Assembly (NCBI GenBank): GCA_963650995.1
Contig: CAVJMS010000004.1
Coordinates: forward strand, 20,485-84,484
Source of the DNA: Succinatimonas sp. CAG:777
GTDB lineage: Bacteria > Bacillota > Clostridia > Lachnospirales > Lachnospiraceae
DNA length: 64,000 nt
Direction: 5' to 3'
Both the position numbers and the translations under genes were made by a program. Shown piece after piece: positions 8,045 to 55,353 of the stretch (position 1 is its first letter; each line of letters starts with the position of its first letter). Below the pieces are notes generated by a model. That model had not been told where the DNA came from, did no database searches, and saw only the letters and a program-made list of their open reading frames with translations.

Positions 8045-9154
8045 ATGAAAAAAGCACTTAGCTTAGTTACCGTTTCGGCAATGGCAGTTTCCATGCTTGC
8101 AGGCTGCGGAAGCTCCAGCACGACCGCGACGACGGCAGCAGCCACCGAGGCTGCAACGACAGCAGCAGCTACCGAGGCAGCCGGTGAGGCCGCAACCGAG
8201 GCTGCAGCCGCAACATCCGATACAGATCTTTCCGATAAGAAGGTCGGCGTATGTATTTATCAGTTCTCTGATAACTTCATGACCCTCTTCAGAACAGAGC
8301 TTCAGAGCTATCTTGAGTCCCTCGGCTTCAAGGCAGAGAACATCGAGATCGTAGACGGCGCAAATGATCAGGCAACCCAGACCAACCAGATTCAGAACTT
8401 CATCACGAAGGGTGTTGACTGTCTCATCATCAACCCGGTCAACTCTTCCTCCGCAGCCACCATCACAGATATGGTAACTGCAGCTGATATTCCTCTTGTA
8501 TATATCAACAGAGAGCCGGATGAGCAGGAAGAGCAGAGATGGGCAGATCAGAACATGAAGGTTACCTATGTAGGATGTGACGCACGTCAGTCCGGAACCT
8601 TCCAGGGCGAGATCATTGCTGATCTTGATAACCACGGTGATATCAACGGTGACGGCAAGGTTTCCTACATCATGATCGAAGGCGATCCGGAGAACGTAGA
8701 TGCCCAGTACAGAACAGAGTATTCGGTAAAGGCACTCAAGGATGCCGGCATCGAGGTAGAGGAGCTCGATGATCAGGTCGGCAACTGGGATCAGGCACAG
8801 GCACAGTCCCTGGTTGCAAACGCACTTGCACAGCACGGCAAGGACATCGAAGTTGTATTCTGTAACAACGACTCGATGGCTCTCGGCGCACTGCAGGCGA
8901 TTGAAGCAGCAGGCGAGACCGTTGGTACTGATGTTTATCTTGTAGGTGTAGATGCACTTCAGGAGGCATGTGACAACGTCAAGTCCGGCAAGCAGACCGG
9001 TACCGTATTCAACGATCATATTTCCCAGTCTCATACCGCAGCAGATGCAGCTGTAAAGTACATCAGCGGCGAAGACAACGAGCATTACATCGGCTGCGAT
9101 TACGTAAAGGTAACGAAGGACAATGTAGACGATGTTCTTGCTTCTCTGAAGTAA
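8045..9154 (+). CDS. mglB: Galactose/glucose ABC transporter binding lipoprotein
   Basis: Lipobox LAGC; Ala/Thr linker; DINGDG Ca-site, CNNDSMALGA, GTVFND as in MglB. Confidence 0.85.
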   Translation: MKKALSLVTVSAMAVSMLAGCGSSSTTATTAAATEAATTAAATEAAGEAATEAAAATSDTDLSDKKVGVCIYQFSDNFMTLFRTELQSYLESLGFKAENIEIVDGANDQATQTNQIQNFITKGVDCLIINPVNSSSAATITDMVTAADIPLVYINREPDEQEEQRWADQNMKVTYVGCDARQSGTFQGEIIADLDNHGDINGDGKVSYIMIEGDPENVDAQYRTEYSVKALKDAGIEVEELDDQVGNWDQAQAQSLVANALAQHGKDIEVVFCNNDSMALGALQAIEAAGETVGTDVYLVGVDALQEACDNVKSGKQTGTVFNDHISQSHTAADAAVKYISGEDNEHYIGCDYVKVTKDNVDDVLASLK

Positions 9155-21223: not shown

Positions 21224-21252
21224 AATATAGCATTGCCTGCGGCAGACGTCAA
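21224..21252 (-). promoter_or_regulatory. Sigma-A promoter of the BCCT gene
   Basis: Minus strand TTGACG-17 bp-TATATT. Confidence 0.65.
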
Positions 21253-21354
21253 GAAAAAGTCCCTATAAAAGGGAGGAGGGCAGGCAGCCTTGCGGCCCCT
21301 GCCCGAATATTATGAAAAAAATCTTCTTAAACAGATAACTCATTTGTTATCTTG
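21253..21354 (-). ncRNA. Candidate sRNA 1 (anti-AUG/anti-SD, csRNA-like)
   Basis: Own -10 (TATATT); 5' hairpin; UUUUUUUCAUAAUA; GCAA-capped hairpin; CUCCUCCC; hairpin plus U tract; paralog near 46.2 kb. Confidence 0.55.
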
Positions 21355-21359
21355 GCTAT

Positions 21360-21445
21360 AATATAAAAGTCAATGGTGAACAAAGTATGTGAGCGGCATG
21401 AACATTTTGTAAACATTGAAATTCAAATATGAACGGAAAATGAAC
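21360..21445 (-). promoter_or_regulatory. -10 box plus GTTCAT/GTTTAC direct repeats (response-regulator-like sites)
   Basis: + strand hexamers GTGAAC 21376, ATGAAC 21398, GTAAAC 21409, ATGAAC 21429, ATGAAC 21440; the first is 10 bp from the -10. Confidence 0.55.
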
Positions 21446-21457
21446 GGCCGCCGGAGC

Positions 21458-22294
21458 TCACTTCTTCCGGCTCTGAATCAGATAGCACGGTACGCCGACA
21501 AACAGCATGCCGCCGAGGATGTTTCCGAGGGTGACCGGAATAAAGCTGTGCAGGCTGTTCAGTGCAGTCAGCTGCTGAAGCTGCATTTCGGTAATGCCGT
21601 AGACCTCCTGGGCCTTGGCCGCATAGACGGGATTACCGGCGGCCAGAATACCGGACGGAATGTAGAACATATTGGCGACACAGTGCTCGAAGCCGCCTAC
21701 CACGAAGGCAAGGATCGGGAAGAAGATCGCCCAGACCTTTCCGGCAATGTCCGAGGCCGCTGCGGCCATCAGCACGGCGATGCATACGAGGATGTTGCAG
21801 AGAATGCCGGAGCAGATGCCGTGCAGCGGGGTGATGGAGATCTTTCCGAGCGCAACCTTGATGGTATAGGCGCCGAGCAGTCCGTCGGTATAGTCGAGGT
21901 TTCCGGAATAAAAGATCAGGAGATCCACCAGCAGTGCGCCGACGAGGTTGCTGAGATATACGATGCAGAGACTACGGAGACAGCTCCGGGTCGTCACCTT
22001 TCCGCACATGACATCCATCACCATCAGGCAGTCACCGGTGAAGAGCTCGCCGCCGACGAATACGATCATCATGAGACCGACCGGGAAAATGCAGCCGGCC
22101 AGGGCCCGGGCGAGTCCGACGTTCGAAATGTTGTGGACGGCTGTACTGCTGGTCGCGCCGCCCAGGGCAATGAAGGCGCCCGCCATGATACCGAGAAGAA
22201 TCATCTTCCCGAGCGGCAGCTGGGATTTTCGCTTGCCGCCCTCCAGTGTGGCGCTGATGACCTCGGCCGGCGTGTTGAAATGCTGTTCTGTCAT
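21458..22294 (-). CDS. Formate/nitrite transporter family protein
   Basis: GIMAGAFIALG, GGELFTGD, CNILVC, GFEHCVANM, GNILGG. Confidence 0.93.
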   Translation of the reverse strand: MTEQHFNTPAEVISATLEGGKRKSQLPLGKMILLGIMAGAFIALGGATSSTAVHNISNVGLARALAGCIFPVGLMMIVFVGGELFTGDCLMVMDVMCGKVTTRSCLRSLCIVYLSNLVGALLVDLLIFYSGNLDYTDGLLGAYTIKVALGKISITPLHGICSGILCNILVCIAVLMAAAASDIAGKVWAIFFPILAFVVGGFEHCVANMFYIPSGILAAGNPVYAAKAQEVYGITEMQLQQLTALNSLHSFIPVTLGNILGGMLFVGVPCYLIQSRKK

Positions 22295-44515: not shown

Positions 44516-46057
44516 GTGACCATTGTTATCGTGCTGGCAGTGGCCGTTGCGGTGGGCCTCATCATGTTCTTTATTGGGTCAAACAAGGCAAAGAACGACT
44601 TTGAAAAAACGGTCGGATCTGCAGAGAAAAAATCCAGAGAGATCATTGATGACGCGATCAGAACGGCAGAGAATAAGAAGCGGGAGGCGCTTCTTGAAAC
44701 GAAGGAGGAGGCTCTGAAGGCAAAGAACGACCTTGATAAGGAAATCAAGGACCGCCGGAAAGAGGTATCCGATCTCGAACACAGAACACTGAAGAGAGAA
44801 GAGGCATCGGAGAAAAAGGCCGTTTCCCTGGATCAGAAGGAGCAGGAGCTCCGGAGACGGCAGGAAAAGATGCAGGCCAAGGAAGCAGAAATCGATGAGC
44901 TTCATAATAAGAAGCTGACCGAGCTGGAGCGGGTGTCTGGTCTGACCAGAGATCAGGCAAAGTCCGAGCTTCTCAAATCCCTTGAGGAGGATACGAAGCA
45001 TGATTATGCAAGGATGCTTCGCGAGTATGACAACCAGGCCAGGGAGGATGCGGAGAAGAGCGCACGGAATTACATTGTGGATGCGATCCAGCGCTGCGCA
45101 GCGGATCAGGTAACGGAATCCACCGTTTCCGTGGTGCAGCTGCCGAACGATGATATGAAGGGCCGCATCATCGGCCGCGAGGGACGGAATATCCGCACCC
45201 TGGAGCAGCTGACCGGCGTAGAGCTGATCGTAGACGATACACCGGAGGCTGTCGTCCTTTCCGGCTTTGATCCGGTGCGGCGGGAGGTTGCCCGCATCGC
45301 GCTGGAGAAGCTGATTGTAGACGGACGTATTCATCCGGCCAGAATCGAAGAGGTCGTGGAGAAGGCACAGAAGGAAGTAGAGGAAACCATCCGTGAGGAG
45401 GGTGAGGCTGCAGTCCTCGAGGTGGGCGTACATGGCCTCCACGGAGACCTTGTGAAGCTTCTGGGACGCATGAAGTTCCGGACTTCCTACGGACAGAATG
45501 CACTGCGTCATTCCGTTGAGGTGGCACAGATTTCCGGACTGCTGGCCGAGGAGCTGGGACTGGATGTCCGGATGGCGAAGCGGGCCGGCCTTCTGCATGA
45601 TATCGGAAAGGCCATCGACCATGACATGGAGGGTACGCACGTACAGCTTGGCGTGGATCTCTGCACGAAGTATCATGAGCCGGAGATCGTGATCAATACC
45701 GTGGCTTCCCACCACGGCGGCACCGAGCCGACGTCCCTGATTGCCAGCCTTGTGGCTGCCGCGGATGCGATTTCAGCGGCCCGTCCGGGTGCCCGCCGTA
45801 AGTCCCTGGAAACCTATACGAACCGTCTGAAGGAGCTCGAGGAGATCACAAATTCCTACAAGGGCGTGGAGAAGTCCTTTGCCGTGCAGGCCGGCCGTGA
45901 GGTACGGATTATGGTCGTACCGGAGCAGGTATCGGATGATGATATGACGATTATGGCACATGATATTGCAAAGCAGATTCAGGAGCAGATGCAGTATCCG
46001 GGTGTCATTAAGGTAAATGTAATTCGTGAGTCCCGTGCTGTGGATTATGCAAAATAA
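44516..46057 (+). CDS. rny: Ribonuclease Y
   Basis: GTG after AAGGAGG; N-terminal TM, coiled coil, KH ([13 protein letters not shown]), HD (LLHDIGK). Confidence 0.97.
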
Positions 46058-46083
46058 GCTGTCACATGGAAGGGCAGCAATAG

Positions 46084-46117
46084 AAAAAGCCTGCGGAGAG
46101 GATCCGCAGGCTTTTTT
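46084..46117. terminator. Bidirectional terminator (rny / sRNA 2)
   Basis: AAAAAGCCTGCGGA/TCCGCAGGCTTTTTT. Confidence 0.85.
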
Positions 46118-46288
46118 GATGATAAGAACTGATCCGCCGGCAGCTGACCGGCCGAAAACTTCCTAAACATGAGGAGACCCCGGCGGACCGAAGGTCCAAC
46201 CGGGGTAATTATGAAAAATCTATCGATTGGGAAAATATACTAAAAAATTGAACTTTCACATTTCAACTTTCGTTTAACTTTCCTACGA
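46084..46288 (-). ncRNA. Candidate sRNA 2 (paralog of sRNA 1)
   Basis: GAUUUUUCAUAAU, CCCCGG...UUCG...CCGGGG hairpin, CUCCUC; same promoter architecture; both ends uncertain. Confidence 0.5.
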
Positions 46289-46293
46289 TTGTT

Positions 46294-46337
46294 AATATAC
46301 TATCGGAATATGAATAAATTATGAACAAATGGTAAAC
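46294..46337 (-). promoter_or_regulatory. -10 box plus three 11-bp-spaced direct repeats
   Basis: + strand AATATA 46294-46299, ATGAAT 46310, ATGAAC 46321, GTAAAC 46332. Confidence 0.6.
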
Positions 46338-46499
46338 GTTTTTCTTTTTTGGCAAACCGGTTCAGAAGAGAAGGAAGGTGCATGCCGAGCTGCAGCCGGG
46401 CAGCTGCAGCCGGCCGCTTTTGCCGCGGCTTCGTTGTCTTAAATTTAACTTTGTGTTAATGTATACACAATACAGAAACGTTCCATCGGAGGAGAATAC

Positions 46500-48218
46500 A
46501 TGCCGAAAAACAAAACCCTTATTCCGCATAATACAGAGCGTGAGGTGCTGGTGACGGGCCATCGCAACCCGGATACGGATTCCATCTGCGCTGCCATTGC
46601 CTATGCCAATCTGAAAAACAAAATCAGCGGAGGAAGCCGCTATGTTCCGTGCCGTGCAGGTGAGCCGTCCCGGGAAACGGCCTTCGTGCTGGACTATTTC
46701 AAGGTACCGGAGCCCAGACTCATTCATACCGTAAAAACCCAGGTTTCGGATATTGAGTATCGTCAGACGCCGGGCGTCAACCGCAACATGTCGCTGAAAA
46801 AGGCCTGGACGATGATGAACGAGGGTAATGTCGTCACCCTGCCGGTCGTCACGAAGCGGAATGCGCTCGAGGGCGTCATTACCATCGGTGACATCGCAAA
46901 GTCCTATTTCAATGTCTATGATTCGCAGATCATCTCGAAGGCTCATACGCAGTTTTCCAACATCCAGGAGACCCTGGAGGCTACTGTGATCACCGGCGAT
47001 GTCAAGCGCTTCTGCACGGAAGGCAAGGTGCTCATTGCGGCAGCCAATCCGGAGATGATGTCCTATTATATCGGAAAGCATGACATTGTCCTGCTCGGAA
47101 ACCGTGCAGAGAACCAGCTCTCGGCCATGGACAACGGGGCCGACTGCATTATCATCTGCGAGGGCGCCGACGTGTCCCCGACCATCAAGAACCTGGCGGA
47201 GCAGAACGGCATGATCATCATGGTGACAAGCTATGATGCCTATACCGCAGCGCGTCTCATCAACCAGTCGATGCCGATCAGCTTCTTCATGACGCAGGAA
47301 AATCTGATTACCTTTACGGAAGATGACTTTATTGACGATATTCATGATATAATGGCAAGCAAACGTCATCGTGATTTCCCGATTCTCCGGAAGGACGGTG
47401 CCTACCTCGGCATGATTTCCCGTCGGAATCTCCTCGGAAATCACGGAAAGCAGGTCATTCTCGTGGATCACAACGAGTCCGGACAGGCAGTGGAGGGCAT
47501 TGAATCTGCAGATATTCTGGAGATCATCGACCATCACAAGATCGGTGCGGTGCAGACCATGTCGCCGGTCTACTTCCGGAATCAGCCGCTGGGCTGCTGC
47601 TCCACGATCATTACTATGATGTATCGTGAGAATGACATTGAGATCGACCGGCAGACGGCCGGCCTTCTGATGTCGGCGATTATTTCGGATACGCTGCTGT
47701 TCCGTTCCCCGACCTGCACGCCGAAGGATGAGGCAACGGCCCGGGAGCTGGCGGATATTGTGGGCGTGGACATTGAGAAATATGCCTTCGATATGTTTTC
47801 TGCCGGCTCCAATCTGAAGGGAAAAACCGTGAAGGATATTTTCTATCAGGATTTCAAGCACTTCACTGCCGGTAAGGTACGCTTCGGCGTGAGCCAGGTG
47901 ACCTCCCTCAACAAGGAGGAGCTGGAGGGGCTGAAGGACGAGCTGGAATGCTTTGCACTGGATATCATGAAGGCAGAGGGCATCGACATGAGCTTCATCA
48001 TGCTGACCAACATCCTGGATCGAAGCACGGATCTTTTGGCGATCGGCCCGGGAGCCGGCCCGCTGGTCAACAATGCCTTTGCTGTGGAGTGCGTCCGAAG
48101 AGGCGGAAAGGACTCAAACGAAAAGGTTCTGGATGCCTGGTCGGTGGAGCTGCCGGGGGTTGTCTCCCGTAAGAAGCAGCTGGTGCCGCAGCTGACGCTC
48201 TTTGCAGAGCAGCTGTAA
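46500..48218 (+). CDS. ppaC: Mn-dependent inorganic pyrophosphatase with CBS and DRTGG insert
   Basis: GHRNPDTDS, CBS-DRTGG-CBS, VDHN, IDHH, SRKKQ. Confidence 0.92.
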   Translation: MPKNKTLIPHNTEREVLVTGHRNPDTDSICAAIAYANLKNKISGGSRYVPCRAGEPSRETAFVLDYFKVPEPRLIHTVKTQVSDIEYRQTPGVNRNMSLKKAWTMMNEGNVVTLPVVTKRNALEGVITIGDIAKSYFNVYDSQIISKAHTQFSNIQETLEATVITGDVKRFCTEGKVLIAAANPEMMSYYIGKHDIVLLGNRAENQLSAMDNGADCIIICEGADVSPTIKNLAEQNGMIIMVTSYDAYTAARLINQSMPISFFMTQENLITFTEDDFIDDIHDIMASKRHRDFPILRKDGAYLGMISRRNLLGNHGKQVILVDHNESGQAVEGIESADILEIIDHHKIGAVQTMSPVYFRNQPLGCCSTIITMMYRENDIEIDRQTAGLLMSAIISDTLLFRSPTCTPKDEATARELADIVGVDIEKYAFDMFSAGSNLKGKTVKDIFYQDFKHFTAGKVRFGVSQVTSLNKEELEGLKDELECFALDIMKAEGIDMSFIMLTNILDRSTDLLAIGPGAGPLVNNAFAVECVRRGGKDSNEKVLDAWSVELPGVVSRKKQLVPQLTLFAEQL

Positions 48219-54040: not shown

Positions 54041-54126
54041 GCATAAAAAATATGAACAAAATGTTAAAAAAATACGGCCGATGTCAAAAATTTACCATAC
54101 AGAAGGGGCGTATCCTCGATTATAAT
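54041..54126 (+). promoter_or_regulatory. Activator-dependent promoter of the TRAP operon with 20-bp direct repeats
   Basis: ATGTTAAAAAAATAC (54061) and ATGTCAAAAATTTAC (54081), then TATAAT (54121); no clear -35. Confidence 0.55.
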
Positions 54127-54192: not shown

Positions 54193-55353
54193 ATGAAGAA
54201 GAGAATTGTAAGCGGCGTTCTTGCAGCTACCATGGTTGCATCCCTTGCAGCCTGTGGATCGTCATCGACATCCACGGCTACAACAGCAGCTGCTGCAGAC
54301 ACGAAGGCGGCAGAGGAGACCACCGCAGCCGCTTCGGAGGAGAAGGCAGAGACCGAGGCCGCAGCAGAGGCCGCTTCCTCTGACGGTGAGTATACCGTAA
54401 ACGAGAAGGCTGCAGCAGATCCGGCTGTTACACTGACCATGGCTGAGGTTAACCCGACCGATGGTACCATCTGCGGACAGATGGATACGAAGTTCAAGGA
54501 GGCTATTGAGGCTATTTCCGGCGGATCCATTACGGTAGATCTTCAGGGCTCCGGCGTACTCGGCGCAGAGGCAGACGTGCTTGATTCCATGCTCGGCGGC
54601 GGCGGAGACATCGATATGTCCCGTATCTCTGCATTCGCACTGACATCCTACGGCGCTTCCAAGTCCGTGCTTCTGTCTCTTCCGTATGTATTTGAGTCCA
54701 GAGATCATTACTGGAACTTTGTAAACAGCGACCTCGGCACCGAGATCCTGAATGAGTCCGAGGAGAAGGGCATCGGCGTGAAGGGCCTCTTCTACGGCGA
54801 GGAGGGCTTCCGTCATTTCTTCACGGTTGAGAACAAGCCGGTTTCTGCGGTTGCTGATCTTAAGAACATGAAGATCCGTGTTTCCAATGACCCGATCATG
54901 CAGAAGATGGTAGAGTCCCTGGGCGCTACACCGGCCACTGTTTCCATGACCGAGCTCTATTCCGCACTTCAGACCAATACCGTAGACGGTGCAGAGCAGC
55001 CGATCGCAAACTATGCATCGAACCGTTTCGATGAGGTAGGAAAGAACCTTACACTGGACGGACATACACTTGGCGCCATCGAGGTTGTGATCTCCGATGA
55101 TGCATGGAACAACAAGCTGACCGACAACCAGAGAGACGTTATCACCGAGGCTTCCAAGATCGCTTCCGACTATTGCCGTACGATTTCTCAGGAGACCGAG
55201 GACAAGGTGCTTGAGGAGCTTAAGGGCCGCGGCTGCAACGTGATCGAGATTTCAGACAAGACCGAGTGGCAGGAGGCTTGCCAGCCGATCATCGATCAGT
55301 ATGCGACCGGCGATCTCAAGGATACACTTGACAAGATCAAGGCACTTGCTTAA
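54193..55353 (+). CDS. TRAP transporter binding lipoprotein (DctP)
   Basis: LAAC lipobox, LPYVFES, KIRV, LYSALQT..VDGAE. Confidence 0.92.
   Translation: MKKRIVSGVLAATMVASLAACGSSSTSTATTAAAADTKAAEETTAAASEEKAETEAAAEAASSDGEYTVNEKAAADPAVTLTMAEVNPTDGTICGQMDTKFKEAIEAISGGSITVDLQGSGVLGAEADVLDSMLGGGGDIDMSRISAFALTSYGASKSVLLSLPYVFESRDHYWNFVNSDLGTEILNESEEKGIGVKGLFYGEEGFRHFFTVENKPVSAVADLKNMKIRVSNDPIMQKMVESLGATPATVSMTELYSALQTNTVDGAEQPIANYASNRFDEVGKNLTLDGHTLGAIEVVISDDAWNNKLTDNQRDVITEASKIASDYCRTISQETEDKVLEELKGRGCNVIEISDKTEWQEACQPIIDQYATGDLKDTLDKIKALA

Follow-up and report, generated by a model that had tools for sequence, protein, structure and literature searches.

Anatomy of the locus

The window analysed here (the whole stretch of DNA, 64,000 nucleotides) carries two copies of a putative small RNA (sRNA) element. 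Copy 1 sits on the minus strand between a formate/nitrite transporter (FNT) gene (stop at 21458) and a BCCT gene. At this place, the initial annotation had described an ordered series of parts, namely a -10 element, hairpins, anti-start-codon and anti-Shine-Dalgarno (SD) tracts and a final U5 run, and all of them are indeed found in place on the minus strand. The features of copy 1 and its surroundings are the following:

21376..21445, minus strand: phased GTTCAT-type direct-repeat array, with boxes starting at 21445, 21434, 21414, 21403, 21392 (degenerate) and 21381
21360..21365, minus strand: -10 element TATATT, with a predicted start site near 21353
21254..21353, minus strand: putative sRNA copy 1, about 100 nt, UCCUCCC subtype, predicted from sequence comparison
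21333..21352, minus strand: 5' hairpin AGAUAAC/GUUAUCU, genus-specific and invariant
21308..21323, minus strand: anti-start-codon seed GAUUUUUUUCAUAAUA, with CAU at 21314-21312
21278..21304, minus strand: central hairpin between both seeds, pairing kept and sequence free
21271..21277, minus strand: anti-Shine-Dalgarno tract UCCUCCC
21254..21274, minus strand: short terminator-like hairpin and U5 tract, variable among homologues
21224..21252, minus strand: separate sigma-70-type promoter of the BCCT gene, TTGACG-17-TATATT, outside the RNA

The family core of the anti-start-codon seed is UUUUCAUA. The predicted folding energy of the 102-nt stretch is -36.1 kcal/mol (z = -4.07), a value that none of 200 shuffled sequences reaches. 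The short terminal hairpin is present with its U5 tract and makes the CCC of the anti-SD tract partly inaccessible in copy 1, but it is absent from the genus consensus fold. Upstream of the RNA, a repeat array of the response-regulator type (21445-21376), overlooked in the initial annotation, ends with a proximal GTTCAT-type box 10 bp before the -10 element.

A second copy had also been announced, and it is present at about 46,083-46,288, between an RNase Y gene and a CBS/DHH-family gene (44516-48218 of the window):

46294..46337, minus strand: copy 2 promoter with GTTTAC/GTTCAT/ATTCAT repeats and -10 TATATT, the top-scoring box of the genome
46083..46288, minus strand: putative sRNA copy 2, UCCUCAU subtype, core at 46217-46171, 3' end uncertain

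The terminator of copy 2 (46117-46083) faces the RNase Y gene. An RNase Y or CBS/DHH-family neighbour recurs beside the UCCUCAU subtype at four other loci (L089, L097, L107 and L114). In the 64 kb, the core pattern of anti-AUG tract, hairpin and anti-SD tract occurs twice (21273-21318 and 46171-46217) against 0.00 expected. The pattern RTTCAY-N5-RTTCAY, expected 0.12 times, is likewise found twice, once immediately upstream of each core and on the same strand. Two subtypes can be distinguished by their end, UCCUCCC or UCCUCAU, and the window holds one of each.

Conservation as an independent unit within the genus

When a 701-bp query was compared with same-genus genomes, the part comprising the promoter and the RNA was kept in 33 of 36 of them, separately from the flanking genes; the same query gave no match in 24 genomes of other families. 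Among the homologues, the neighbours of the RNA unit change in both identity and orientation. All 21 distinct genus sequences share CUCCUCCC and the 16-nt tract GAUUUUUUUCAUAAUA without change. The hairpins of the initial annotation are all there, but their comparative support differs: in a genus alignment that was not fitted to a model, 6 of the 11 pairs of the central hairpin have changed on both sides, whereas none of the 6 pairs of the 5' hairpin (GAUAAC/GUUAUC) has done so, which leaves the latter without covariation support. The element thus looks like a stand-alone small RNA gene with its own promoter, as far as sequence comparison can tell.

A family of putative sibling RNAs in Lachnospiraceae

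A covariance-model search, which the initial annotation had suggested, found the family in 70 of 100 Lachnospiraceae genera. With the refined model, 123 matches were obtained at E <= 0.001, with 1-8 copies per genome: 37 of the 70 genomes with matches have one copy and 33 have two to eight, and copy number correlates with genome size (Spearman 0.37, 70 genomes). Applied to 52 loci, a model built solely from the genus recovered 45 members, each of them at the expected position and strand. All 11 pairs of the central hairpin covary, 94.6% being paired versus 60.3% in shuffled sequences, in an alignment that was itself fitted to the model. The core anatomy was present in each of 20 re-examined regions with multiple copies or weak matches.

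The member set started from a loose pattern, which revealed many perfect hairpins between both tracts in other genera, and consists of hairpin-bearing matches chosen by eye from about 150 listed (25 regions); 48 entries, among them both copies of the window, passed a filter on motif and fold. The loose pattern alone matched 229 of 250 genomes, but it overcounts through ordinary gene starts and was therefore excluded from the prevalence estimate. A scan of the collection gave at least 120 matches. Among the 80 matches listed, nearly all are labelled as Lachnospiraceae or as member genera, which include Roseburia, Blautia, Butyrivibrio, Acetatifactor and Eisenbergiella, and a few carry other or vague labels. 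These labels point to Lachnospiraceae as the probable family of the window itself. The AAU that follows CAU is not invariant in the additional siblings.

Outside the family, weak matches alone were found, in 8 of 119 genomes of the order and 2 of 136 of the class, where 27-38 candidates were scored per genome and sensitivity was limited. The promoter box was absent from the 7 order and 2 class weak matches examined.

The search in Rfam that had also been proposed returned no match at gathering score to any Rfam 15 family over the element. No match was found in the window, in the element region down to E 10 or at the motif in 20 distant loci (two matches lie away from it), and 17 further loci searched to E 0.5 gave sub-threshold matches only. 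Two Rfam elements, a Clostridiales-1 RNA (L110:109-276) and a sodium riboswitch (L103:487-548), lie within 1 kb of members and do not overlap them. Taken on comparative sequence support, which is strong, this is a real and uncatalogued family of putative sibling sRNAs.

Some members deserve mention for their location. Tandem or close sibling copies occur in L093, L337 and L341, with spacings of about 1.6 kb, 480 bp and 250 bp. Ten matches fall on viral contigs, and four of them (L318, L319, L321 and L323) have the full RNA anatomy and a promoter score; these may be prophage-borne or reflect host flanks.

Strand and coding potential

In the stems of 54 distinct cores, whose commonest hairpin loops are GAAA and GCAA, we counted 43 G-U pairs on the proposed strand versus 3 on the opposite one, a count mildly biased by the selection of members through folding of the minus strand. 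This bears on the possibility, raised in the initial annotation as a way to dismiss the RNA, that translation of a plus-strand peptide, MKKIFLNR, explains the motif. The plus strand would then carry the function, in the form of a gene for a small peptide with SD sequence and AUG joined by a hairpin, and every member can be read there, by construction, as GGAGG, hairpin and ATG AAA AAA. Across 54 members, the opposite-strand ORFs vary from 3 to 39 aa and have no conserved sequence beyond the complement of the seed. Because of this and of the G-U asymmetry, the peptide was rejected; the promoter and the U tract, moreover, both point along the minus strand, and we regard a plus-strand gene as extremely improbable. 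Equally hard to credit is that the element acts in cis, as a leader or terminator of the neighbouring gene. The BCCT gene does lie directly downstream on the same strand in this genome, but it has its own promoter, starting at 21252, as the initial annotation had argued in denying that this is a BCCT leader, and the gene that follows the RNA is convergent or unrelated in most homologues. An independent trans-acting RNA resembling the csRNAs, as originally proposed, is instead supported by its own promoter, changing neighbours, covarying hairpin, G-U asymmetry and lack of an Rfam match.

The promoter box and a candidate regulator

The phased GTTCAT-type repeats of the array have a period of 11 bp. 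The gap between boxes 2 and 3 is about 10 bp longer in this clade than in other clades of the genus; since the extra length corresponds to one helical turn, the helical phase of the array is kept. When a box matrix was trained without this genome, the two sRNA promoters ranked first and second genome-wide. The box is located upstream of 79 of the 80 members listed, whereas the 76 downstream controls all lack it. Where a -10 box was detected, its spacing is the same in 57 of 59 cases and corresponds to GTTCAT-N5-GTTCAT-N10. All 80 listed loci also have the hairpin, a proportion partly imposed by the search pattern. In the reverse direction, exact box matches were sought in 40 genomes; 8 were found in 7 genomes, and all 7 evaluable loci lead into a core, 2 of them into variant cores. 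The third-best box match of the genome, at about 54049-54070 (minus strand) between the genes for an AraC-type response regulator and a DctP lipoprotein, has neither a -10 element at the usual spacing nor an RNA core.

Nine genes of this genome were taken as the closest homologues of an OmpR-type regulator; one of them, the OmpR-type regulator gene at G000 C13:8701-9384, has an upstream region that ranked 2 of 1,583, behind an sRNA promoter alone. Upstream regions of its orthologues score at least 9 in 10 of 15 other genomes of the family and lack a good box in the remaining 5, compared with a background of 15 in 626 windows, which includes the regulator's own upstream windows. Matches 67-75% identical to this regulator were found in all 15 family genomes, whereas 3 of 5 genomes outside the family have 47-51% identity at best. 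The regulator reaches no NCBIfam cut-off, and its kinase has HAMP, HisKA and HATPase domains alone. The regulator and its box are also found in genomes without an sRNA match (G061, G112 and G167). From these sequence data, we consider it rather likely that this family-restricted OmpR-type protein is the activator of the sRNAs. In such a scheme, an OmpR-family response regulator, probably the product of C13:8701-9384, would bind the GTTCAT-N5-GTTCAT-N10-(-10) promoters and switch on the sRNAs.

Other candidates were considered and set aside. A two-component operon on contig C2 has a box score of 10.8 here and of at most 4.0 in all five orthologues. PhoB is disfavoured, the pst locus scoring no higher than 3.4 with the box matrix and the region upstream of pstS containing TTTACA repeats; some sRNA promoter repeats read GTTTAC, and the two boxes may thus overlap. 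None of three PhoB-like controls had a good box, although these genes lie inside operons and provide a weak control. The genome has a pstSCAB-phoU-phoB-phoR-like operon (L272, G000 C17:9310-15944), in which pstS is itself a predicted sRNA target. An OmpR-type regulator with a CiaR-like recognition helix (L271, G000 C13:31988-32665) was rejected, its upstream repeat being a different one (TTTCAG-N5-TTTCAG), close to the CiaR box. A link to envelope stress through FtsH, whose gene comes third for the promoter model here, is unsupported, since only 2 of 9 homologues elsewhere reach a score of 9. The HssR box presumably resembles the GTTCAT-type box of the sRNAs; a text search of the literature for the HssR box found nothing. 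We also noted a recurrent promoter-like element containing TTGTCC repeats at G000 C20:40580 and C20:43283 (minus strand), with a similar one on C21, in front of several long genes that lack annotation and possibly belong to mobile elements.

Predicted pairing and candidate targets

According to the initial annotation, folding of the central hairpin brings the anti-AUG and anti-SD sequences together. In keeping with this, CAU and UCCUC are 4-7 nt apart in 52 of 55 members once the hairpin is looped out; a similar spacer, of 5-8 nt, separates GAGGA from AUG in 24 of 30 lipoprotein genes of this genome. Of the six cofolded duplexes drawn, most keep the hairpin and pair both tracts across the SD sequence and the AUG. 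We propose that the central hairpin would loop out while UUUUCAU(AAU) and UCCUC pair jointly with the target as a three-way junction. The paired region would comprise AUG-AAA-A and the SD sequence of the target, and 30S loading would thereby be blocked without Hfq; a search of this genome, which is 97% complete, gave no Hfq. On these grounds, the RNA is likely to pair at translation starts, and pairing with ribosome binding sites appears very probable.

Two candidate targets lie in the window:

8045..9154, plus strand: gene for a sugar-binding lipoprotein, candidate target, start region matching the seed 11/11
54193..55353, plus strand: gene for a DctP-family lipoprotein, candidate target, seed score 10/11

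The main targets would probably be exported proteins, since the seed suits MKK-type starts, and above all ABC/TRAP solute-binding lipoproteins; this is the weakest step of the proposed mechanism. Gene calls (1,606 genes) and the lipoprotein class were obtained with simple custom scripts. A near-perfect seed match together with an SD sequence was found for 33 genes of this genome, and 21 of them belong to the lipoprotein class of 50 genes; these matches concern mostly amino-acid, sugar, TRAP and phosphate binding proteins. Among the candidate lipoproteins scanned, 16 of 18 match a solute-binding or NlpA family. Among genes with ATGAA starts, ATT precedes the ATG in 18 of 41 lipoprotein genes, versus 2 of 55 genes for other secreted proteins and 13 of 267 for cytoplasmic ones (p = 2.5e-10). 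These bases are non-coding and match the AAU that follows CAU in the seed. Positions -3 to -1 separate lipoprotein genes from cytoplasmic and other secreted ones also within genes with a strong SD sequence (17/34 versus 7/127). The ATT-lipoprotein signal is strong in this genome, with 16 of 31 pattern matches, but weak elsewhere: the ATT share is 37/323 in 11 other family genomes versus 148/2,140 outside the family, the genomes not being independent. Throughout the genome, most solute-binding lipoproteins begin almost identically, with a Cys-Gly-Ser-rich stretch that leads into a long linker of Ala, Thr and Glu (for example, 8045-9154 and 54193-55353). Since the Ala/Thr-rich N-terminal module is common to them, the lipoprotein starts may not be independent.

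At the level of the genus, starts complementary to the seed over its full length were seen in 11 genes; 9 of these look exported, although MKK starts favour export anyway. Only 9 of 30 genus genomes contain a start region with full complementarity to the invariant seed. The best predicted target (-27.7 kcal/mol) was matched in only 3 of 36 genus genomes, and no single conserved target was found across the genus genomes. Whether lipoprotein genes are the main targets therefore appears evenly balanced on sequence data.

These observations leave room for a different role, in which the RNA, by presenting CCUCC as the 16S tail does and CAU as the initiator anticodon does, would act as a broad damper of translation and titrate many strong AUG-AAA starts under stress. 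The seeds do fit generic strong starts, many cytoplasmic genes appear in the top-30 cofold lists, especially for copy 2, there is no single conserved target and the ATT enrichment is weak across the family; the separation of lipoprotein genes by positions -3 to -1 in this genome, which holds among strong-SD genes as well, speaks against it, and we judge such a damper unlikely. Still less probable is an RNA that binds a protein, such as a U-rich or C-rich single-strand binder or a nuclease, with an incidental likeness to a ribosome binding site. The invariance of the 5' seed within the genus exceeds what imperfect pairing with multiple targets would need, and no Hfq was found, both of which would suit protein binding, but the order, strand and spacing of the two tracts are right for SD plus AUG, and the hairpin between them conserves pairing alone.

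We thus favour a reading in which Lachnospiraceae possess a family of trans-acting sibling sRNAs, activated by an OmpR-family regulator and pairing with the SD sequence and the AUG of their targets, and we hold this reading to be probable. A more specific proposal is tentative and falls somewhat short of an even chance: one lineage-specific two-component system would act mainly through 1-8 sibling RNAs, which would recognise AUG-AAA-AAA signal-peptide starts as an address through their two-part seed, split by a hairpin, and lower many solute-binding lipoproteins together without Hfq.

Comparison with known systems

Lachnospiraceae are dominant fermenters of the gut and rumen, and an sRNA candidate present family-wide can be tested in cultured strains; start-site tables of C. 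phytofermentans have been published (PMC5171806, in the text available). For such tests, the promoter signature is now at hand, together with a candidate regulator and a few candidate targets. A search of a literature collection with few subscription papers found no description of this sRNA family and, within the same limits, no characterised trans-acting sRNA family for Lachnospiraceae. For the candidate structured RNAs of Fremin and Bhatt 2021 (PMC8040213), the accessible supplements, files 7 and 8 excepted, contained no match to the motif, and those two files may include a corresponding prediction.

The likeness to the streptococcal csRNAs pointed out in the initial annotation holds in part. 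According to the portions of the literature available, both are sets of sibling sRNAs with promoters of an OmpR-family regulator, a candidate one in the present family, arranged as hexamer-N5-hexamer-N10-(-10) (PMC3091779), and both carry anti-SD and anti-AUG sequences, vary in genomic location and occur in hosts without Hfq. In the same portions, the csRNAs are transcribed from the strongest promoters of the CiaR regulator and their known targets include transporter genes, and CiaRH is reported in streptococci only (PMC3091779, PMC4507080, PMC4387999). The two differ, however, in their box, in the nonamer and in how the seeds are arranged. The CiaR box NTTAAG-N5-TTTAAG is found in none of 55 members of the family, where the box is GTTCAT-N5-GTTCAT, and the csRNA nonamer [A/C]UCCUAAA[A/C], as given in the accessible text, is likewise absent from all 55. 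The csRNA seeds are described there in one unpaired region between two stem-loops, whereas those of the present family flank a covarying hairpin; 13 csRNA structures are described as more complex in the available parts of the csRNA papers.

LhrC1-5 of Listeria monocytogenes are also multicopy and dependent on a two-component system (LisRK), and their UCCC pairs with the SD sequence of a surface-protein mRNA; as far as the available text goes, the loops and linker of LhrC carry three redundant UCCC sites (PMC4132741). In contrast, each RNA of the family described here has one anti-SD tract and a separate anti-AUG tract, and its loops vary freely. RoxS/RsaE of Bacillus and Staphylococcus is a C-rich anti-SD sRNA under an OmpR-family regulator (ResD/SrrA), but it is one conserved RNA with several C-rich regions, and the accessible text describes no split anti-AUG/anti-SD design (PMC4409812).

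If the proposed mechanism holds, the succession of anti-AUG tract, hairpin and anti-SD tract would add a split-seed design, and the class-wide control of nutrient-uptake lipoproteins would bear on substrate switching and on engineering. In enterobacteria, GcvB and MicA/RybB/MicL lower a whole class of solute-binding or envelope proteins; they are Hfq-dependent and have other seeds and regulators. By analogy, they are a possible functional parallel and, should lipoprotein starts truly serve as the address, the present RNAs would be a Gram-positive counterpart of the enterobacterial envelope-relief sRNAs, with more copies in larger genomes.
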